From assembly GCF_002113885.1 (NCBI RefSeq), contig NW_018408821.1:1238135-1302134 (forward strand): a DNA stretch of 64,000 nt, in the 5' to 3' direction. The translations under genes and the position numbers were made by a program. Under the pieces are notes generated by a model. That model searched no databases, was not told the origin of the DNA, and saw only the letters and a list, made by a program, of their open reading frames with translations. Of the stretch, positions 6,451 to 59,317 are shown piece after piece; position 1 is the first letter of the stretch, and every line of letters begins with the position of its first letter. Source of the stretch: Mizuhopecten yessoensis. Lineage: Eukaryota.

Positions 6451-9400
6451 TCGGCAACGACGTGAATAGTAATCTGTCCTTAGGCAAGAATGCATTGTAG
6501 TGGATGCATTTGACAATCGGGTGACATTCCAAATTACAAGATCTCTCAGATAGTTTTGTTATTCCATTTTTATTGAAAATCTATTAGGTTTTGCTATTTA
6601 GAAATGAATGATGCGGATTTGTTTTTCTTGTTAACAAATAACATATCTAGATTTTTATTAATCGAAATTGTTAAAGTACATGTTAGCTAAAGTACATTTG
6701 GATGAAAGGTGACATATAGATTTAATACTGAGAAAATGATTTACCGGATGGCAGTGGTACTAAAGAGGTCCAAACAGCTAACGAGTTTGTTCAAAGGCTG
6801 TGATTTAGTGGATCCGTCCCCAAACACACGTTAACCACCGTTTTATTAGATATTTAGTGTGTTGAGTCAGCAAAATCTCCGTACTAAAATGTTTATTTAT
6901 CATGTTTAGAGGACAAATTTTCAAACAGTTAATTTGTTTTGATATCAGAATATAAACTACTCGTAAAATAATTTTGATTTGAACATCCAAATCCATTTAA
7001 TGACTCGGATTATTTTCCAGTGAAGGAGTACGTAACCAATGTGGAGATACTCTAGCAGGCGTGTAAAAATAAGCACATTTATAAACATAATTACATCAAA
7101 TTGATATTGCTCTTTTGACACGATACGAAATACGTTTAAAACGTTCTATGACCTACAATTGCCGATTATAACCACCATAACAGTTGCATACGCTCATTAA
7201 TTTGCCTTTTGGTTTATTTTGTAACTAATCCGGGTTTTAATTTGAGGATGTGACTACCTGGGTTTTACCCTAATGTACACGGCAGACGTCCTCTATGAAT
7301 GAAACTACGTTTCATTTTCAGACGCATCTGTTCTTATTCCCCTTGAACATAGGGGATAGTCCATGTTAATTTTCTTCATATTATGTCCTTACTTTGTCAA
7401 TTTGAGAGTGAAATAGGGTTTTTGTGATTGTTTTTGGCATACAACGAATGTAAATTACTGTACGTTTCATCCATGAGTCAATCTAAATTTCAAGTGTGCA
7501 ATATATATACTCAGTACGTTCTGTTGTGTTTTATTTTCCTTTAGAAATATAAAACATAATACCAACGGACCGTGTATAGAATCTAGAGTCCATGTTGTCC
7601 ATTATCGGTGGGAATATTTTCACTTCACAGATCCACAAGAAATAATTTTATTATTGAGACAAAAATCACACATTCCTTTTAACGTGATTACTTTTTATCT
7701 AAAAGGAAATATATTGTTCCTGACGCTGATAATTATATTACCATTTTCTTCATATCAAAGAAGATAAATGTATTCCTATGAAAATCAAGCTAACTATTCG
7801 GTAAGGCCCCCTTGGGATGGTACAGCTCATAAAGCAGGACTACAGGACGGTTATCAAAGAACGACGTCCTCGTTTTTATCAAAAAAACGTAATTTTGTGT
7901 GGGAGAGAGTTCCACACATCAGTGAAGTGGGCTCATTTAAAATCGATAAAGATGAGCGAAGAATGTCCTTTCGGACTGTGGCAGATAGTCGTAATTAGAC
8001 TTCACTAGCCTAGTAAACGTACTTGCATCGCATTTGTATGGTCTGGACGTAACATGTAATCTAATTTGTCACGATGTATTTGATAAATAGGATAGCTTGT
8101 GTTTAAACTTTTACTTCGGAACGGTATCAAAATGGCATCAAAGCGTGTTAAGTGTAAAAAAGCAGACCAATTTTTGGTTATTCACGTTACATCAAATATG
8201 GGACAGACACGTATTTATGAGACGTACTTGTAAATGCATGTGCTGTGTAGAATATCTATATCCCAGCCAAGATTAAGTGCAAAACATATAAGTTAACATT
8301 CAAAGAAAATTGCTGGTGATTTGAACATAAGGTAAATGAGCATGACTATGGATTTCATGGTATAACTACTAACTTTATAGCTTTAGATTTGTTGTCATGG
8401 AAGTTCCAAAACGAGTGGTTATCATGTTTATACAACTCGAGTCAGTTCATTTTCAAATTGTATAAAGGGACAATGTTTACCGAATATTTTTTACAATTTG
8501 AAAATTAACTAACAAGTGTTAGGTAAACATGGTAACCTACCATCACGAGTTCGGGGTACTCTTTCTACCATAACGTTTATATCTTATCTGGAAAGCCATA
8601 TCTTTCCCTTTAAAATGCTCTTTTCGGCTTCTGATGGGGGAAACAATTGCCGTGAATCATGACGTCACAATGGAAGATGACGCCGCAATGCATTGTTACG
8701 TGACGGCATTAGTAATAAATTGACCAATGAAATTACGGCCAGGGTGTTATCCACTAAGGGGTAACCAAACTCCTAGCAGGTTTATCCAATGAGTCAGGAG
8801 TGAGGAAACCTACAGTGGTTGTGAGAGAAAGAATGTTTTTCTTGGATGAATGTCGAAGTTGTTTGGGTTTTTACGAGATTCTTGTAGCTGCTGGATTATT
8901 ATGAATATGTCAAATAAGAGACACACAACTGAAAACATATCGTTTCATTGAGCAATATGCACAGGCCTCACTTTACACCATTCTAGATTCCGGAATACAT
9001 GTATAAGGAATCTATTGGTATGTATTACCAATGCATTCTAATGCAAATTCTTACTATGACATGACTAATGGTAGTGTCTAGTATATGAAAGATATGTTTT
9101 GGACTCACTGACTGATTGTGTTAATGGCAGACACCGTTCTCGATATCTACAACCATGACTACACGTCTGTTTTGTCATTTCCTCTTTTTTTCTCTCTCTT
9201 CCATTTCGTTTTGGCAGTGTTTCATACATTGCCTCTGGTTACCCGTTATTATGATAGTGTGACTTGTTAGAGTTCTGCGTCCCTACTACCGTACAATATT
9301 TCAATGAGATAGCACTGCTTGTCATTGATTTGTTACTGTTTCTACCACACGATTTAATTCGTTGTTTATTATGCACATAGTATGGGAGGTTAACAAAACT

Positions 9401-13680: not shown

Positions 13681-14039
13681 ATAAATAATAATAATATAAT
13701 AATAATTATTCGAGGTTCTTATTTACCGCTTTATCACAACCTAGTTCGTAGGTCGTCTCAAAGCGGTTCACAAATTATTATCCGTGGTTTATTGCCTTTG
13801 CAACCAGCCAATACCTACTCCCTGGGGAGCATACAGCCGGTGCTGCCAATTCGGCGCTCACAGCTAGCATTCTACAATTCTAGCACTGCCTAACGTCGTA
13901 CTCATTTACAGCTGAGTAGACTGGAAGAAGCGGATTAAAGTCTCCTGCTTAAAGATACAACACAGTGCCGTGCTGTGACTCGAACCCGCAACCCTTCGGT
14001 CACGAGCCCGGCGTCCTACCACTAGACTACTGTGCCTCC
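13681..14039 (-). mobile_element. Full-length tRNA-derived SINE with L2-type 3' tail
   Basis: Minus strand begins GGAGGCACAGTAGTCTAGTGG (A box) and has GGTTCGAGTC (B box). Central CCAGTCTACTCAGCTGTAAATGAGTAC segment and (TTA)n tail. A second copy lies at 23630-23778. Confidence 0.9.
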
Positions 14040-16310: not shown

Positions 16311-17056
16311 CAATTCGATCGCCAGGGATCTGTACAGTAACAACAACTGTATCAATGTATGAATTGCGTTCCATGTCATTTCACCTCTTTACCTATAAGG
16401 AACAGAATGAATTAGAAAATGTTTGCGATGTATAAAATACGCGAAACAAATTATAAAAGATTCCGAAGTTGACGTCATAAGATGACGTGATAATTCTAAC
16501 TTTTCAATGCCTGTGTATATTTGTATACAACAAGGATATTTCAGACACAGACACAGGTCTATTCCTCGTACACATAAGTAAAATAACTAACACGTTTGTT
16601 TTCTTGACCAAGTGCATTCTCTCGAATATTTTGATGTTGTTATTTATTCATGAGATAACATTTTAGCATACTTGTCTACCAGTTGCAGGTTATCTGAAAA
16701 TTTATATATTTTATCTTTTGCCAAAATTTTCCAAGAAAAGATGCACCCTGACAGAAATGTATTTCTTGAATACTAGACCGAGATGTCCGCATTTCCGGTG
16801 GTGCTGGAAAATTCTATGCTACCCACGGGTCTAGATCGCTAACACGCGCAGACTGGCGGAAGAATTATAGTGACCTTTCGGGGACATGCTATTGTTCGTG
16901 ACGTCATTTTATGACGTTTTAGGGTCAGTCAGGGGCATTGACGTCATTAACAATTGCCATCCGTGCTGCATATGAAATGAAAAGTGCGCGGACATTCTAC
17001 AACTTTACTAGAAGAGCAACTGTTTTTATGGGTTTTAGGTAATAAGAAATAAATAG

Positions 17057-17595
17057 AATCCATCCCTGATGTGAGGTAAGAATAGTGTCATTCAAACCCT
17101 CGGGATAAAATATTGAGCAAAAACCTTCGGCAAAGCCTCGGGTCTCCTGCTCAAAATTTTATCCCTTGGGTTTGAATTACCTTTTCTCCCACACCTGACA
17201 GATTTATCTCCCGTTTTGCCGGTGCTAGATTTATCTGTCTCCGCCCTAGGGTTGAGACGGGGGGATTCCCCTATTCATAACAATGGCATGACGTTACTTC
17301 AACAATACAATGACGTCACGTCAACAATCCATCAACAAATTGCCTGTATGTGTTTTGTGTCCATGTTTACCTTTATTTCACATTAAAATACTTTTAGATA
17401 TGGGAGGAAAATAATCAATCGCTACTGGTTGTGTAAGATAGAGAAATCTCCACCCTAGGACTAAGACTTTTTGTCCAGAACTCGGAAAGCCTCGTTCTGG
17501 ACAAAAAATCTTAGTCCTCGGGTTGAGATTTCTCTATCTTACACAACCAGTAGCGATAGATTCTATAAATCCATACCACACATCAGGGATGGATT
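17057..17595. mobile_element. Palindromic element (outer) interrupted by a second palindromic element
   Basis: Left arm AATCCATCCCTGATGTGAGG...ATTCAAACCCTCGGGATAAAATATTGAGCA, cap TTCGGCAAAGCCTCGG. The right arm is split at 17186/17572 and resumes CATACCACACATCAGGGATGGATT. Confidence 0.8.
17187..17571. mobile_element. Inner palindromic element, ~385 bp
   Basis: Near-perfect 64-bp arms at 17418-17481 and 17494-17557 around the cap (C)TCGGAAAGCCTC(G). Inserted in the outer element's right arm. Confidence 0.85.
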
Positions 17596-18261
17596 ATGTT
17601 ATTCTATAAAGTAAATCTCTCTGAGAACACCGTATAGAGAACATTTCAAAGTATAATGAACACGTATGGTGTTTGCTTGCACAGAGGCCACGTTATCCAC
17701 TTCGGAGCCGAATGTTTCGAAGTAAGGGATCGATTATATATACATAAACAACAGTTAAGTGAAGTCCCCCGTACTCATAAACATGGACGTACACGGAAAT
17801 GATTTTAACAGATGTAACAAACCAGTTTAATCTAGGAAAATCCTCTGCTTTATCCATGAAGTTACTCTCTGACAGGGTGCCTTACGCAGTGCAGTTCCCA
17901 CGTTAGACGCCGATTACGTTTTATGATAAGCTTTGTGTCAAGACAACAATGAAAGCATAGTGTGATGCATTTCAGATAAACATCATTTGTCCATGCCAAT
18001 TCTTTAAATGAAACAATCAGGCAGTGGTCTTTATGCGATAATTGAAAACATCACAAATAGTGTTTTTTTCAAAAAGCAGAGGATATCATAACGAAAATGA
18101 TCGATTGAAGTGCTGTGAACTTCCACTCGGCTATTCACATTTTAAGCTGTTTTTTTGAGATGGCAACATAACTATAAAATGACACCAAAAGGTTTTATGT
18201 GTATGTATTGAAACAAAATTATCGAATAACACTAAAAACAACTTTGCGATAAACAGTTATT

Positions 18262-21890: not shown

Positions 21891-22980
21891 CCGAACCTTG
21901 GCCGTTATTGGTCAAGATGATGTGTGCATTTCGAAATATCTTACATGCAAACAATTCTCTGTATGAGCGAATCAACAGCGATGGATTATAAAGAACACTA
22001 TCATTTGAGGCTTGAATAATAATGCTGAAGAAGGGAGAAATACCTCTTGCGAAGTATTAAGTCGTCACGTTGGTCGTTATTTGTCATTTTTGTAACTGAA
22101 TTCAATTAAGAAGTTGTTTGAGGTCATTAAATGCGTGGAGACTCTATGATTCTTACAGAAAACAATGAGTGATTGGCAGATATCGACGTCTAATCTTCCA
22201 GTTTCTTAAAATAGAAAGCCTACTATTTTTCGAAACTCTACAATAGTTCATCATTACTACCTACTATTTTGTAAAGGCCTAGGGATATACAGATGTGTCT
22301 ATCGACCTTCACTGACTTGGACTTTATGCCTTTCTTCAAAATTGGATATAAAAATGACTGCTCTAAATAGCAAAATGATTTCAATATTTCTTATTCTCTT
22401 TTTTATAGATCATAATTACATGTTGTGATAACAAAAATATCCCTTACTGTGGGAGTCCTGTGGCCTTAGCCAGATGTATAGTCATCGTAATGGAGAGGCT
22501 GATTCACTACTAGAGCGGTGTGCAACTGGTGATTATATAGCGTCGTGCCAGTAAACCAGCCACAGAAAACCGTCATTAAGTGCCCAGAAACATGACATGT
22601 CAAACCGTCTACGGCCGTGGGAAGAATGTCATGGGCTGCGTCCTCAAGAAAGGCAATGCGTGTCTGTACTAAAATGGCAGTTTAATTTATATGTGACTTT
22701 GATGTTTAAGCACATGCTGTCAAGGCATCATCTTGTGTGTGTCACACATAAGATCAAACGGATAACCGAAACACTTTTTACTGAAAGTCTCGTATACATG
22801 TATATTGACAATAGTACCGACTGGGAAAGTTTGATCCATTCGCTTGGTAACACAAATGTAATTTTCATAACAGATGTACGCTTGGTTACCATTTACTTTC
22901 CTGCAACAGTGTTTTGTATATGATTAAACCATGTGCCTCTGTCATTACTAATGGATATTGTATCTGAAGGTTAAGGATTT

Positions 22981-23016
22981 GTTTCGGAACCGAGGCTTCG
23001 CCGAGGTTCCGACAAC
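22981..23016. repeat. Short palindrome with CCGAGG-CTTCG-CCGAGG cap (remnant of the palindromic class)
   Basis: TCGGAACCGAGGCTTCGCCGAGGTTCCGA, with weak outer arms TGGATAT/ATATCCA. Confidence 0.6.
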
Positions 23017-23239
23017 GACTTGCATATCCATATTCCACATGCATGTACCTATGCTGTTTTTAATGATTGTATCGTATTCTCCCATCTCTTAATCAAACGT
23101 TTGGTAAAAACAGTACATATATAATCAATTTGAAAGCACCATTAGATATAGTAAAATTTCTAGATAACGTATACACAAAATAGAGTCATACTTTGAAAGA
23201 GCAGAAAATGAAAAGGTGCAGCATTGGTATAATAAATAT

Positions 23240-23630
23240 AGAATAATACATGCCTTTTTCCATATCACACCCAGTATCAACCTGAGACTGCAATATCAGC
23301 CCAAGGGCCGAAGACACGAAGGCTGATATTGGTCGATGGTTGATACTGGGTGTGATATGAAAAAAGGCGTGTTTTATTCTGTTTATTACATATTTACTAA
23401 TAAAAACTACTATCTTATGATTTAATTTTCTTTTGGAAATATTGAAAAACGAAAAAAATCCAAAAGTGGGGTGATCTGGGTTTTGCGGGCTGATACGGGT
23501 TTTGGGGTGTTATACGGCGGGGCCGATACGGGTTTTGGGGGGTGATACGGTGAGGGCTGATATGGGTAAGAGCAATTGTGTCGTATCGCATATACAAAAA
23601 ACCCGTATTTATTAGTAAGTATGTAATAAA
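23240..23630. mobile_element. Palindromic element with displaced outer arm
   Basis: Hairpin 23240-23380 (AGAATAATACATGCC...GGCGTGTTTTATTCT). A second inverted pair lies at 23382-23404 and 23608-23630 (22/23 match). Internal GATACGGGTTTTG subrepeats. Confidence 0.8.
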
Positions 23631-23778
23631 TAATAATAACAATTTGGGGTTCTTATTTACCGCTTTATCACAACCTAGTTCGTAGGTCGTCTCAAAGTGG
23701 TTCACAGATTATTATCCGTGGTTATAGGGCCTTTGCAACCCGCCAATACCTACTTCCTGGGGATCATACATCCGGTGT
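23630..23778 (-). mobile_element. 5'-truncated copy of the 13681-14039 SINE
   Basis: GGTTCTTATTTACCGCTTTATCACAACCTAGTTCGTAGGTCGTCTCAAAG is identical to the first copy and the alignment continues for ~140 bp. Confidence 0.9.
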
Positions 23779-29825: not shown

Positions 29826-29880
29826 TTTTTATTTCATTTTCGTCTTGCTCAATAACGCATGTATAACCTTCAATTCATCG

Positions 29881-29899
29881 CCACTTTTTATTTTTTCAG
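29881..29899 (+). other. Splice acceptor immediately 5' of the NKY ATG
   Basis: Polypyrimidine tract CCACTTTTTATTTTTTCAG|ATG. Confidence 0.8.
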
Positions 29900-30319
29900 A
29901 TGACACAAGGAACATCCTTATTGCTGGTTGTGTTTGCCAACTTTTTTGTCGTACAGTGCTATGGGTCCTATCTTCCTGGTGCTCTTGGACTGTCCAAGTC
30001 GAATGAGGCCAGTAACTATATAGACTCTGTAATAACGGAAGAGGAGAAGGCCTTCTACGCTAAAGTGATACAGAGACTGATGGACCGCGCAGCCGCATTG
30101 GAGGAGGAAGTGGACGGACACAATGGAGACAATTTTGACTCTGACGCTGACTTAAGCAGTTCAAGCGATCTTAGTGGTTTAAAACGCTCTATGGACAAAC
30201 GAAAGGTTTTCTGGCAGCCTCTTGGGTATGTTCCGGCTTCAATGCGCATGTCACCAAATAACAAACATAAGGCAAGCCAGAAAGACGTAGGGAGGAAAGG
30301 TTTCCGCTATGGTAAATAG
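29900..30319 (+). CDS. NKY: Neuropeptide KY (NKY) prepropeptide, 139 aa
   Basis: Hydrophobic signal peptide (~aa 1-22), acidic pro-region, KR-SMD-KR convertase sites, then the 36-aa KVFWQPLGYVPASMRMSPNNKHKASQKDVGRKGFRY (30203-30310) followed by GK-stop (amidation). N-terminal K-x-FWQP and C-terminal RYamide are diagnostic of lophotrochozoan NKY. Confidence 0.93.
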   Translation: MTQGTSLLLVVFANFFVVQCYGSYLPGALGLSKSNEASNYIDSVITEEEKAFYAKVIQRLMDRAAALEEEVDGHNGDNFDSDADLSSSSDLSGLKRSMDKRKVFWQPLGYVPASMRMSPNNKHKASQKDVGRKGFRYGK

Positions 30320-31842: not shown

Positions 31843-31947
31843 AGAAAAGCCCCAAATAGTCCATTCTGTAAGAGAATGAACAGATCTCGGCCATACGGGC
31901 CTCGGTCAGTCCATTCTCTCACAGAATGGACAGTTTTCGGCTATTCT
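31843..31947. mobile_element. Palindromic element with CTCGG...CTCGG cap
   Basis: Arms AGAAAAGCC...GTCCATTCTGTAAGAGAATGAAC and GTCCATTCTCTCACAGAATGGAC...GGCTATTCT, cap CTCGGCCATACGGGCCTCGG. Confidence 0.7.
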
Positions 31948-47050: not shown

Positions 47051-47566
47051 TAATAATAATAATAATAATATACAGCATTTATATAGCGCCCTATGTAATT
47101 TGTTAAATTACTCTAAGGCGCTTTCCAACATATGGATAATAGTAATGGTTATAATTGTGAAAACAAACAACAAAGGCTTGCAATCACTTTCATACATTTA
47201 ACAAGCAATGTGCACATAATTGAACAAATAAAAGGGTGGTATTTGCATGACGTCTTTGCAAAGATTCTAAAATGCAGACGTGAAGAGGTGAGTTTTTATG
47301 TCCCTCTTGAACTTGGCCAGGGTATTCGACTTCCTAATAGCAGATGGTAAGCTATTCCACAACGTAGCCGAAACCCTCCCAAAGCATCTGTTTCCGTAGG
47401 TCACAGTACGAGATTTTGGGACACACAACAAAGATTCTGACTCCGACCGCAGTGATCTTGACGGCTGATACAGGGTAACAAGTTCCTGTAGGTACTGAGG
47501 AGCTGTTCCATTCAGTGCCTTGTATGTGTATACCAGAATTTTGTACTGCGACCTGTATCGTACAGG
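47051..47566 (-). mobile_element. Young 5'-truncated L2 LINE 3' end
   Basis: Uninterrupted frame PVRYRSQYKILVYTYKALNGTAPQYLQEL...RSLRS...LWNSLP...FKRDIKTHLFTSAF*, followed by a 3' UTR with GCGCTATATAAAT and a (TTA)n tail. Confidence 0.9.
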
Positions 47567-47699
47567 AAAATCTTCAAAAACCTTGGTCCAAATTATTTTT
47601 GGACACAGAAAAAAGTGTGTTGCCCTACAGTCAAGTAAACATGGTATTGTATTCAGAATAATAAAATGAGATGCGTTTCCAATTCAAGTTTAGTAGTTA

Positions 47700-48220
47700 C
47701 TTGTACCGCGTTTTGAGCCGTGGTCACATCTTACGGTCACGCACGTAGTTGACTGTAGTGGGGGATGACGGTAGTTGACTGTAATACTCCGTATACGTAG
47801 GTGACCTTAGTTAAACGTAGTATATGGAGTTTGACATAATTCACTGTAGTAATAAACGTAGTTTGAACTTCAAGAAAGCCATGATTTGGCCGTGGTTAGC
47901 CAAAAAATGTTCAACATATTCAAAGAGTTTGGATGCCAATACCCTACTGTGACTGTACTCTGAACGTACATGTAGTTGACCCTACTTGACCGTAGTGTTT
48001 ACCATAGTTGACCGTAATAACACGGCACTACGTACGGTTAACACAACGGCCAAGTAGGGTCAAAAAAGGAAAATTACTAGGGTTAGTCTACCTTTGAAAA
48101 ACGTTCACAGTACGTTCAAAGTACTGTTTAGTACGGTTAACTAGGGTCAACTAAGGTGAAGTAGGGCTACGTAATGTTGAATTTAGGAGTTAGGGTTAGG
48201 ATTAAGGAACTACGTTCAGT
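47700..48220. repeat. Degenerate CGTAGTTGAC-rich repeat, motifs in both orientations (probable DNA-element interior)
   Basis: Many GTAGTTGAC(C/T)GTA copies on the left and reversed ACGGTTAAC/GGTCAACTA copies on the right. Confidence 0.5.
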
Positions 48221-50520: not shown

Positions 50521-50779
50521 CCCAAGGGGTGTATAGTTTTGTATTGAAACTTTGTATAGCCTTTTCGAGGCGAAAAGACGAGATGACGACAATTTAGATA
50601 CAAATATAATGTCGCTATTTTGCCCCGAAATAACGAGATTTTAAATTATAGAATGTCGTTGTTTCGTTATTTCGCGGCGAAATAACGACATTATATTTGT
50701 ATCTAAATTGTCGTCGTCTCGTCTTTTCGCCTCAAAAAGGCTATACAAAGTTTCAATACAAAACTATACACCCCTTGGG
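50521..50779. mobile_element. Foldback MITE, ~116-bp arms
   Basis: CCCAAGGGGTGTATAGTTTTGTATTGAAACTTTGTATAGCC... is mirrored by ...GGCTATACAAAGTTTCAATACAAAACTATACACCCCTTGGG with few mismatches and a short spacer. Confidence 0.9.
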
Positions 50780-51565: not shown

Positions 51566-52154
51566 TACGATGGCCGATAACAGCCGACACGAAACAACTA
51601 CATTATAAGACATTTATGTACATGTACACTATTTAAAAACTGTACATGTACACAAAACAACAACAATATAAGACATTTCTGTACATGTACACTATTTAAA
51701 AACTGTACATGTACACAAAATAACAACAATATAAGACATTTATATACATGAATATTAATTAAAAACTGTACATGTACCCAAAACAACTACAATATAAGAC
51801 ATTTATGTACATGTACACTATTTAAAAACTATACATGTACACAAAACAACAACAATATAAGACATTTATATACATGAATATTAATTAAAAACTGTACATG
51901 TACACAAAACAACTACGATATAAGACATGTATGTACATGAACACTATCTAAAAACTGTACATGTAAACAATACAACTACAAGTGCTATTTACATTCCTTA
52001 ACGGTTCGTGTCAACTTGATATTTCACACGTGCCTGATACGGCGGTTAATAAACGACAAGGAAATAACTAAATTTCCCAGCAAAAAAACAGTGTACATGC
52101 ATATACATATCTTATATTGTAGTTGTTTTGTGTCGGCTGCTTTCGGCCATCGTA
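51566..52154. mobile_element. TIR element carrying an internal 63-bp tandem array
   Basis: ~60-bp imperfect TIRs (TACGATGGCCGA..CAGCCGACAC.AAACAACTACA and TGTAGTTGTTTTGTGTCGGCTGCTTTCGGCCATCGTA). About 6 tandem 63-bp units at 51595-51980. Confidence 0.85.
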
Positions 52155-53213: not shown

Positions 53214-53335
53214 TAGTCCGAATTATTCTGACGTTTTATCGACTTTTTTCATATCGGTCTGTCGTCGATTAACGACGTTAATGGACGACAGACCGATATG
53301 AAAAAGTCGATAAAACGTCAGAATAATTCGGACTA
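53214..53335. mobile_element. 122-bp palindromic MITE with 9-bp TSD (AcademH-like or Mutator-like)
   Basis: TAGTCCGAATTATTC...GAATAATTCGGACTA, flanked by TAAATGGGG at 53205-53213 and 53336-53344. Confidence 0.9.
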
Positions 53336-54989: not shown

Positions 54990-57817
54990 GTAACAAAACG
55001 TTTATTTCATGATATTTGACTTCTCTTAACAGTTGCTTGAATCAAGTACTTACTTAAATTTCTAATAAGTGTAAAAAAAATGCTAGCCAGTAGCTCTATT
55101 AATTTAAACACAGAAGGACGAATACGATAATATGGCTTGATATACGATACTCTTAATTCTAAAGAAACTCATCCTCGACATCTCCAAGATCACATAAAGT
55201 ACACAATCTCTGGTTTCAAGGCACTGCATTATATCTACCTGTCTCTATATTAAGGTTATGTGCTTGCAATCTATATTTCGCAAGAATACATTTATTTTTT
55301 CTAAAAAGCGGTTTTGTAAAATACCATTGTATATCAAAACGGTCAACAATGTGTTTATACAACAAACATTTTGAAGATGTTTTGAATATGTTTCCCATTT
55401 CCTGAATAAAAGTATAAATTCTACGCTGTATATGCAAAGGGTAACGACCAAGTTCAAAATATACCATGGCATTATTTACTGTTTTCCTGACACCCAATAA
55501 GGTTTTCAAAAATAATAAATGTATATTTTCAATCTGCGGTGCAGGACTATAACCCCATACTTCACACCCGTAATTTACAATACATGATATATAAGTATCA
55601 AATAAAGATAACTTGGTCTTTTCATTCAACAAAAATATTTTCGCTTTCCGATTAAGAAGAAAATAAGCTTTCCTTCCTTGTACAGCAATGTTATTCAATG
55701 TAATGGTAAATTTACCATTATAATTAAAAACCAAACCTAAATAGCAAAATTGATCTACCACTTCTATAGCTTAACATCAAAAATCCACTGCTCGTTTGGA
55801 TACAATCGTTTACTTTTCCTAAAACCAATTATTTTTGTTTTGTCTACATTTACAGATAAATTCCAACGTCGAGAATAAGTGATTAAAAAATCCAACATAT
55901 TTTGGAGGTCAACAACATACCCAGAAAAAAACACCGTGTCATCGGCATACATGATTAAAAACAAATTAAGTAATTGCAAGTGATAACTTTGGTAATTTGA
56001 CTTAATCAATTCGAATTCCATGTCGTTGACAAATAAAGAAAACATTATTGGAGATAAAGATTCTCCTTGTAATAATCCGACCTGTAAGTCGTACATAGGA
56101 GATAATTAACCATGAAACTTTCCACATGACTCTCGTATATAGATTAATTTCCACAATTTGCACCACAATTGATTAAGTGATATACTATCAAACGCTTTTC
56201 TATAGTCTACGAAAACAAAATAAAGCTTTTTATAACTCTGTAACGTTTTAGTAATCAAGGTATTAAGTACAAAAAATGTATCTCTGGTACCACTCCCGGG
56301 CTTAAAACCAAACTGAGCATATGTAATTACATTCTCGCTTTCGCTCCACTTTAACATTCGTTTAAGAGTGATGTAAATAACTTGGCCATATGACTTACTA
56401 ACGTGATTCCCCTATAATCATTTACGTCGTTTTTATCACCTTTTTATGCAGAGGTATAACAACTCCTTCTGATCAAGCTTAAGGAAAGTGTCCTACCTGT
56501 AATATAGTATTAAACAATTGTTGGAAAACTGGTGCAATAACATCAATACACTCAATAAAATATTCATTAATGACATTGTCTAAACCGGCGGATTTACCTT
56601 TGGATGACCCTTTCATTGAAACTAAAAATTCATCAAGACTGAAATCGTCATCAAGCTTAGGGTAAATACATTCGTTATCAACTTCAACTTGCTCAACATT
56701 GACGGGAGAAAAGTCAACTGAATTGTTGGCAATATCTTTAAAATATTGGTAAAAATAATTTAAAACCAGATTTCTGAAATCACAAGTCTTACGTCTAGAA
56801 AAATTACTTTAAAGAAAATTTGGGATCATTTTTTCTCAAAATGTCTTACATATCGCCTTCATTCCAAAGAAAAGATCTCTTCACCCTCCCTTCGTAGGTC
56901 CTGTATTTCTTCTTTTCACAAACCAAGTTTTCTCTATTGCTAACAGTTCTACATATATTAAAAGATCTTAAAGCGTTTCTATATATTCTACGTAAACGTT
57001 TACATTCGTTATCAAACCATGGTTTGTCAGGTTCCTTGACATTACGTCTCGACTTCTGATGACAAGAACAATTACAAGTACGTATACGTTTCTCGAAGCA
57101 GCAAGACTTGTCAAAAATAGAGTGAACATTGTTAACCAGTACTTCCAAACATTTGTCAATACTGTCCGTAGTATTCTCTAAGGTATTCAATGAATTTGCA
57201 ATTAATGCCCTGTTTGCATTCATAGAATCAGCAGTATTTACTCTTATTTCTTCTGTCCAGTACACAGACTTAGTAGTACTAAACATATTACTGAAGTCAC
57301 AACAATTACAAATATGAGTGTCTGCTTTTAAGGTGAAAAACAATGGCGCGTGGTCAGAATATTCATTAAAATCACAAATATTACAATTTTGAACCTGGTC
57401 CAAATAATGGCCATGAGCCAGTACATAATCAATTGTACTTGTACCTAAGGCGTTATAAAACGTAAATTTACCTTCGATATCACCAGTCGTCCGACCATTT
57501 AATATTCGAAAACCAGTAGTCTTACACATTTGCAAAAGACGACGCCCAAATTGGTTAACAAAAACATCTTCAGAATTACGAACACTTTCACCAACTTCAT
57601 CCTCATAGGGTATCACATTATCTATAACCTGATGTAAACTATCATGTAGAACATCAAATGGAATAAAGTCAGGCTCTCTACCAGTTCTACTTTTGAGATC
57701 ACCAGTGATAAATACGTGACCCACACAGCTGAATTTGGCAATTCCAATTTCCAATACATCAAACATATTGACATCATAACTATCATACATAAAATGTTGC
57801 CCTTTCTCATACAACAC
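54990..57817 (-). mobile_element. Decayed, 5'-truncated LINE ORF2 (APE endonuclease + RT), RTE-X-like (tentative)
   Basis: Endonuclease motifs GDLKSRTG, ILNGR, STIDY, SDHAP and linker PWFDNEC. RT motifs QFGF, FVDYRKAFDS, GLLQGESLSP, YADD. C-terminal ELGRYPL and LNIETGRY. Split by frameshifts and stops. Confidence 0.93.
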
Positions 57818-59317
57818 CTTCCTTCTTTAGTTTACTGTATATGATGAGATGTTTTAATGACATTTTGTAGATCACCTTGGAACCATTACTGGAAAACCAT
57901 GGAATACTCGGACAATCTGATAAAACATGTCTCGTGTGTTTTTACGCATTGCAAGAATGTGTTATATAGGGGGGAAACAGTAAGTCAAGAAATTGCTCGA
58001 TAGTTTCAACCATATAATAAAACTTTACGATACTGCATTTTACCATTTTATCACAAACACTGCGGTTTTCTGTTCTTGTTCATCTTATCATGGAGTGTAC
58101 ATGTGCTGTGGTATTGAAGGGACTACTAATTTCCAGAAAATCAATATTAAATCTTGATAGATATTCCCCACAAAACCCGAACCTACCTTTCATTATAACT
58201 TCACTTACCAAAACGCTTTGATTCCATCTGGTCAATACGTAGGGAAATAGTCAAATGCAAAAACAAACAAAAAGTTGATCAAGTTAATAAACGATATACC
58301 TTCTTAATGCCTCCAAAAAATTTCAAACCTTTTCAAATTTTAAACTCTTTACGATTATTTTCGTAAGTATAGCCGGGCAGTAGTGATATTTTAACAACAG
58401 TCAGTATATAAAGTTATGACAGTTTCTGCTGTCTAGAGTTTTGTGCGAGTTACGCCCCCTTACATCCCTATTTGAGTAAACGTATTTTATTGTAATTTTG
58501 TCATGCTAGAGAAGAAAACTTTGCAACCTTGCCCAGATTATCATGTCCTGATTTTGAAATAAGTATAACATCTCTACTACACTAATAAATACATAATGAA
58601 ACTAATAACGTGAGGCAATATGTATCTGATGCTGTCAGTAAGCGTATAAAATAACCTAAATACCGTACCGAATGAACTAAGATTCGTATCGTCTAAAAAA
58701 ATACATTGTAGATAAACAAAATCCCTGAGAAAGAAAAACGACAAAATAAAACTTTACTATTTAAGTGAATGCATCACATGTATTTGTGAAGCTTTTAATA
58801 CGATTTCAGTCACTGTCATTAATTCAGCGTCAGCACACTTCAAAGTTGTAGCGACATAAACCTTTCAGAATTGCTTACTGGCGAAATACTAACAGTATTT
58901 TGAACACAAATGATGTAACGCTAGGGAGTCAGTTTATTTCAAATAGCTGTAAAAACTCTGAATGACAGGTGTTTGGAGTACTACATATGTTTAGATAACG
59001 AAAAACATACATACCACAGTAATAGTTTGCATATCTGCAACGTTAACGTCCTGCGATATGTGTGGTATAACCTATTATCACATGGTAAGAAATAATTATT
59101 TATAAATAGAACTTGCCATATGATATAAATATAAATAAGAATAAAGGAAGTAAATCTTAACCTTTAGAAAAATAATCAAAAATGTACATCATGAAAACGA
59201 ATCATTAAATATATATTTCATTATCTACATCATGAACAAAAAATATATAGTATATGATTGACGCATTGGATAAGTCAGAAAAGAAGTTAATGTAATATTT
59301 ATCAGACCATTTGTCAA

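Follow-up and report, generated by a model that had tools for sequence, protein, structure and literature searches.

The 64,000-nucleotide stretch analyzed here (referred to below as the window) contains a long palindrome with a second palindromic element nested in its arm, and this locus raises the question of how such elements move and where their true ends lie. The window has a GC content of 0.29 to 0.41 and consists of AT-rich animal DNA, probably molluscan, with reverse transcriptase (RT) fragments. Evidence on the families was taken from run contigs and from motif scans of public collections. For description, we will use "window letters" for the bases of the 64-kb stretch and "family letters" for the bases of related copies in contigs; family letters and depth derive from the public contigs of 4 out of 20 runs, with X17 to X20 containing next to no query words, and summed contig depth does not equal copy number. 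The coordinates of the features are compiled in Table 1.

Table 1. Features of the nested elements and of a third element in the window
Feature	Position	Strand	Basis or remark
Inner element, complete, 385 bp	17184-17568	-	Empty form joins 17183 to 17569; best register
Inner long hairpin	17391-17568	-	Fold z = -16.8
Inner tail	17202-17390	-	Small hairpin 17197-17240; TGACGTCA motif 17311-17318; no ORF match
Inner far end, displaced outer arm piece (18 bp)	17184-17201	-	Complementary to 17391-17408
Outer element, ~454 bp without insert	16763-17601 (left end probable)	-	Repeat depth; X11 loose end at 17052
Outer long hairpin	17040-17601	-	Arm split by inner element between 17183 and 17569
Outer far end, inverted copy of 17040-17055	16760-16775	-	Weak match; left end probable
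Third element, independent, same layout	23237-23630	+	Far end 21/22, unique in window

The initial annotation had described a palindromic element nested in the arm of another, and the contigs confirmed this. Contigs of all four runs (5, 2, 6, and 3 contigs) pass directly from 17183 to 17569, skipping exactly 385 letters; hence, copies of the outer element occur that lack the insert, and the two are not bound together as a fixed composite. The contigs with the empty form probably stem from other members of the outer family. No removal other than one of 385 bp brings the outer arm back into register; this length agrees with the original coordinates of the insert, but the true ends lie 3 bp to the left of 17187-17571, as indicated by the contig joint and the register. 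Specifically, the removal of 17184-17568 yields 57 matches among 68 arm positions with window letters, versus 56 for 17187-17571, and 60 versus 59 with family letters. According to the family letters, 17184 belongs to the inner and 17569 to the outer element, so that the crossover duplicates no base. The dinucleotide TC reported as common to both junctions is present, but it is located one base inside the probable crossover and does not represent a duplication. As had been stated, the insert lacks conventional TIRs; no inverted repeat pairs its two termini.

On the minus strand, the inner element is composed of a hairpin followed by a tail. The arms (17413-17481 and 17494-17562) comprise 69 nt each with 94% pairing and enclose a loop at 17482-17493. 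Family letters 17451A and 17457C, the latter representing 98 to 100% of depth in all four runs, restore a mid-arm GA/GA mismatch on the minus strand, a second instance of the tandem G.A type. The far end of the element (17184-17201) matches the inverted 17391-17408 at 13 of 18 positions with window letters, a value reached at 6 of 63,982 window positions, and at 15 of 18 with family letters, which is unique among the 63,982 positions; in a shuffle test using window letters only, the inner far end fails (25/200 shuffles). The displacement of the outermost part of the right arm to the opposite end, previously termed a circular permutation, is thus real and, at 18 bp, longer than noted, but it is not an accident of this copy, being the standard layout of the class. 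Compared with the circle junction as rejoined, the internal arm lacks approximately 2 nt. In X1 and X7, contigs proceed from 17566 to 17184 with two letters in between, at depths of 83 and 154 among the matches listed (about 4 to 10 times the flank), a joint that fits genomic dimers as well as circles. Within the 64-kb window, no second copy of either the inner or the outer element was found. The inner arm motif gave no matches in the viral, genome, and metagenome collections, and the inner loop motif gave none in the viral collection and two in the genome collection, both without arms. The 13 Rfam matches were all generic miRNA hairpins below the gathering score.

The outer element is larger than the interval 17057-17595 originally assigned to it. 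Between 16850, the limit of the compared region, and approximately 17610, contig depth exceeds that of the flank by a factor of hundreds, and from 17618 onward it is single copy; the left end likely lies near 16763. Position 17052, which mirrors 17600, is the endpoint of 31 X11 contigs with near-random flanks (agreement, 0.41); this places an end of the outer family inside the arm. The arms are formed by 17087-17119 with 17148-17180 and by 17052-17083 with 17569-17600, with the loop at 17120-17147. The far end listed in Table 1 matches at 13 of 16 positions with family letters, as do 4 of 63,984 window positions, and at 11 of 16 with window letters, a score reached by 178 of the 63,984; with window letters only, it fails the shuffle test (48/200 shuffles). 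The letters TTCT at 16763-16766 recur at 17602-17605, forming a 4-bp direct repeat at the ends of the outer element if its left end is placed correctly, and no inverted repeat pairs these termini. The inner and outer hairpins are homologous (alignment score of 49 versus a maximum of 32 in 200 shuffles) and break at the same motif; their tails align with a score of 33 versus a maximum of 31 in shuffles and have the TGACGTCA motif in common. Two further observations concern the surroundings of the nest. At 17644-17661, contigs from three runs (X7, X11, and X9) agree with the right flank, to the left of which they show 13, 124, and 270 unmatched letters, respectively, and X1 matches through 17539; the nest locus may be structurally polymorphic. 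The nest as a whole is flanked by a short inverted pair (16743-16772 and 17851-17880, with 13 matches in the first 14 positions), but an enclosing element is doubtful because the right flank is single copy in contigs.

The layout is clearest in the third element, which folds as two stacked stems. Its hairpin extends over approximately 23237-23403, and its far end (23609-23630) is an inverted copy of 23382-23403 that none of 200 shuffles equaled. A 9-bp identity (23230-23238 and 23624-23632) spans its junctions. Both the outer and the third element appear to be built like the inner one. A 91% identical repeat with a TAA-rich start occurs at 13689-13842 and 23624-23777, the latter copy directly adjoining the third element at its far end. 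Six window hairpins, at 8417, 22987, 31843, 47976, 50521, and 53214, were negative in the far-end test. Two of the window hairpins (31843-31947 and 22979-23016) possess the loop type of the elements with no far end detected and are likely decayed members of the class, and four long hairpins (50521-50779 with 116-nt arms, 53214-53335, 8417-8537, and 47976-48063) have other loops and no displaced arm piece. The window further contains broken non-LTR retrotransposon frames on the minus strand (55216-57826 and 47267-47683; RT matches at 55767-56105 and 56109-56411), a tandem array of partly palindromic units of approximately 63 bp (51587-51981) with an inverted copy at 52086-52154, and a plus-strand ORF of 150 amino acids (29867-30319) with a signal-peptide-like start, dibasic sites, a C-terminal amidation signal, and no Pfam match, which we take to resemble a mollusc NKY-type neuropeptide precursor.

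Relatives were collected by scanning for the shared loop. The scan of viral contigs returned 45 loci, of which five, all from one AT-rich source and including two duplicate pairs (leaving three distinct flanks), represent an element of 890 to 1100 bp whose start lies within the arm and whose end is formed by approximately 30 bp that repeat, in inverted form, the DNA just beyond the other arm. The metagenome scan, covering 7 of 64 parts, yielded at least 121 loci, at least 33 of them with long arms; adjoining dynein, tektin, and Mab-21 exons identify several of these loci as animal DNA. After removal of the duplicates L119, L042, and L047, the far end was found downstream, in register next to the arm end, in 10 of the 17 copies with enough DNA, versus 2 of 25 in the upstream control, with the 10 positives belonging to four families rather than being independent cases. 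The seven negatives comprise two near-misses at their family's distance (L107 and L099) and five plain negatives. Copies start in register within the arm in 9 of 12 cases with flank for family F1 and in 10 of 10 for F2, and in 22 of 23 cases the flank does not continue the arm. The one exception (L097:40-370) has the same loop in a palindrome whose arms exceed 160 bp and which departs from the cutting pattern of the rest. The junctions read approximately ...AA/T... (the slash marking the joint), 2 to 3 nt distinguish the internal copy from the junction, and the flanks exhibit variable microhomology and no fixed duplication. Taken as a whole, the arm-internal cut is the standard integrated form of the entire class, including the outer element.

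The orientation of the elements is likewise fixed: of the two strands, it is the hairpin-first strand whose loop is capable of tandem G.A pairing, in each positive and in each of the three window elements alike. Standard folding energies differ little between the strands; sheared G.A pairs receive no score in the model used. At L046, two copies that are only 87% alike and belong to different subfamilies are joined end to start, extending the palindrome from 139 to 185 bp, and L109 ends in a second end-to-start joint; such a head-to-tail dimer rebuilds the full hairpin. In view of the L046 dimer and the far-end counts, the idea of a family with normally unbroken copies, of which the inner one would be an aberrant permutation, was set aside. 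Long arms accompanied 2 of the 127 loop matches in prokaryote genomes and none of the 23 viral loci obtained with three more loop variants. The same core of G.A mismatches and a GNA loop, lacking long arms and similar to REP elements, was encountered in many bacterial genomes and phage contigs (L169 to L289 and L290 to L312), where only L178 and L210 have arms, of approximately 58 bp.

A preference for related palindromes as targets, as suggested in the initial annotation, found no support: in relatives, 24 flanks yielded no match to the body of an element. The inner element entered the outer one in the middle of the arm and not at the outer element's own junction. The nest probably arose when an element of low insertion specificity entered one of many repeats, and the sole recurring form of self-targeting is the precise end-to-start joining seen at L046 and L109. 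For comparison, some CryptonV families are described as target specific, namely, for microsatellites (PMC8869645).

Read on one strand, the elements consist of a start (A), an arm, a loop, the complementary arm (A'), a segment B', the tail, and the far end (B); by this order, A'B' is an internal complement of the end-to-start junction B/A. Judging from sequence, we give a probability slightly above one-half (roughly 0.55) to the following explanation: two related gene-less transposons, one of which inserted without duplication into the arm of the other, have ends that would rebuild a long hairpin when joined and would be mobilized in the form of folded single-stranded circles by a tyrosine recombinase of the Crypton type whose gene lies elsewhere. 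The hairpin-first strand would become exposed, probably at replication, and would fold such that A'B' splints both ends. The recombinase would then perform one strand exchange inside the arm, at approximately ...AA/T..., releasing a circle, which would enter an AT-rich target sharing little or no homology with it, and replication would resolve the product. Exchange with the end of a related copy would give rise to head-to-tail dimers.

The same elements and enzyme class could also be combined with classical double-stranded recombination between the circle junction and the target, the palindrome serving as an accessory binding array or replication signal. The model of Goodwin for circle excision and integration (PMC3212892) provides a precedent, and microhomology is present at two of the three window insertions (4 bp for the outer and 9 bp for the third element). 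Nevertheless, classical sites are described as requiring a matching 6- to 8-bp core and nearly identical partners (PMC2727003), and the inner insertion has none in register; as this pathway, moreover, leaves the internal junction complement and the fixed strand polarity unexplained, we regard it as unlikely.

Membership in the Crypton group had been proposed in the initial annotation, with a Crypton-like tyrosine recombinase acting on a circular intermediate. A circle opened in the arm, the lack of TIRs, and the lack of a fixed TSD are supported, and such an enzyme is still the best candidate, but it is a putative one, as none of 335 scanned ORFs matched a tyrosine recombinase (DUF3504) or Rep/HUH protein. 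These comprised 109 ORFs of the window and 106 plus 120 near or in relatives (106 of 109 in one set and 120 of 262 in another), and the negative outcome is expected of non-autonomous copies. Cryptons are described as lacking TIRs, as having microhomology rather than true TSDs, and as moving via proposed circles (PMC3212892; PMC13465315). Here, neither the inner nor the outer termini pair, and the microhomology amounts to 0 bp for the inner, 4 bp for the outer (at its probable left end), and 9 bp for the third element. Terminal direct repeats of 4 to 6 bp are described for fungal and oomycete Cryptons, and none is reported there for animal ones (PMC3212892); among our elements, they are absent from the inner copy and present in the outer one, subject to the same placement of its left end. 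Non-autonomous relatives of CryptonA occur in fish and include Eulor5/6 (PMC5753468). The animal representatives (CryptonA-1N1_OL, Crypton-N1_SSa, CryptonA-N2_SSa, and Eulor5/Eulor6) resemble our elements in being short, gene-less, and abundant, in lacking TIRs and a fixed TSD, and in the circle model proposed for them, whereas their published descriptions, on which the comparison is based, mention neither a long hairpin nor an internal junction complement (PMC3212892, PMC5753468). On the best reading, our elements would be non-autonomous and of Crypton type, with a putative recombinase and a circle junction that may act as a folded site similar to integron attC. Presumably, Eulor5/6 carry the loop and layout seen in these elements.

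At attC sites, a tyrosine recombinase cuts only the bottom strand, in its folded form and inside the R' outer box, and the product is resolved by replication (PMC2727003). Our elements have in common with attC a palindromic site cut in its outer part with the outer piece left at the other end, a one-strand bias (for our elements, one of sequence polarity), and a small arm asymmetry (PMC2727003). Minimal target homology and arrays built by site-to-site joining are further shared features, as circles would be (PMC2727003). In contrast to attC, they reside in animal DNA, carry no gene cargo, have stems of approximately 150 to 200 nt, and insert at dispersed AT-rich sites; their differing junctions read ...AA/T... 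instead of containing an AAC/GTT box, and no attI, IntI, or other integrase match was found in the material scanned.

A different enzyme class would be involved if an HUH nuclease of the Helitron/Helentron, Replitron, or IS200-like peel-and-paste type, reading single-strand hairpins, moved these non-autonomous elements. Polarity, terminal hairpins, absence of a TSD, and dimers all fit HUH elements in general (PMC10288648), but the latter insert in a specific orientation at a fixed dinucleotide (AT, TT, or RG), whereas the AT-rich flanks observed here vary and have no fixed target dinucleotide. Furthermore, both element ends are precise, the L046 dimer unites two subfamilies and so is not a product of rolling-circle run-on, and Rep/HUH matches are missing from the 335 ORFs; HUH-mediated movement is therefore considered quite improbable.

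Even less credence is given to non-autonomous DIRS-like retroelements, in which the internal complement would be an ICR splinting the ends of single-stranded cDNA before insertion by the recombinase. DIRS1-like elements with an ICR do share with ours an internal region complementary to both termini, the lack of a TSD, and a tyrosine recombinase integration model (PMC3266345), and our elements, when read tail first, also begin with TT. Unlike DIRS1-like elements, however, they have no ITRs at their two ends, the inverted arms being adjacent (12 to 28 nt apart) and the complement being part of one terminal hairpin; the two junctions of the inner copy do not show the same NTT, and no gag, RT/RH, or recombinase ORFs were found inside any of the scanned copies. 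Neither do the elements conform to MITEs or to the solo LTDRs of mollusc KolobokP, which are similar in size, form multimers, and have been proposed to form circles, but are described as having TIRs, TSDs of 3 to 5 bp, and long direct repeats (PMC9587614); TIRs with a fixed TSD and long direct repeats were not seen here. Finally, it is very improbable that the inner copy is a one-off, i.e., a stray circle captured by illegitimate recombination from a family whose normal copies keep an unbroken arm: the contigs of X1 and X7 that run from 17566 into 17184 at elevated depth and the absence of a loose end at 17184 or 17568 among the 24 matches listed (with 1077 further rows) would fit this, but the outer element, the third element, and four other families are all broken at the corresponding position, and a contig at more than 100 times the flank depth spans approximately 17348-17438, so that an alternative end there is not expected.

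Returning to folded single-stranded circles, a broader proposal is put forward tentatively. The elements may represent a widespread animal class that follows the logic of integrons, with a folded single-strand site that is complete only in the circle and is recognized less by sequence than by structure (tandem G.A pairs and a 2-nt arm offset), and with different subfamilies able to join, end to start, like cassettes. A eukaryotic single-strand tyrosine recombinase system of this kind could be the missing mechanism of animal Cryptons.

The hairpin-junction layout was not found described in the literature searched, and figures, Repbase Reports, or Dfam notes may already record it. What is added here is a base-exact empty site, three cases within one 64-kb stretch, and dimers of unlike copies; the nest itself is ordinary, and its value resides in the empty site. 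With this layout as a guide, true ends can be assigned in a class of repeats that is common and poorly annotated. With regard to how animal Cryptons recognize their ends, it offers a precise substrate, defined by the cut position, the strand, and the internal splint. If the single-strand model is true, recombination read by structure would extend beyond bacterial integrons.
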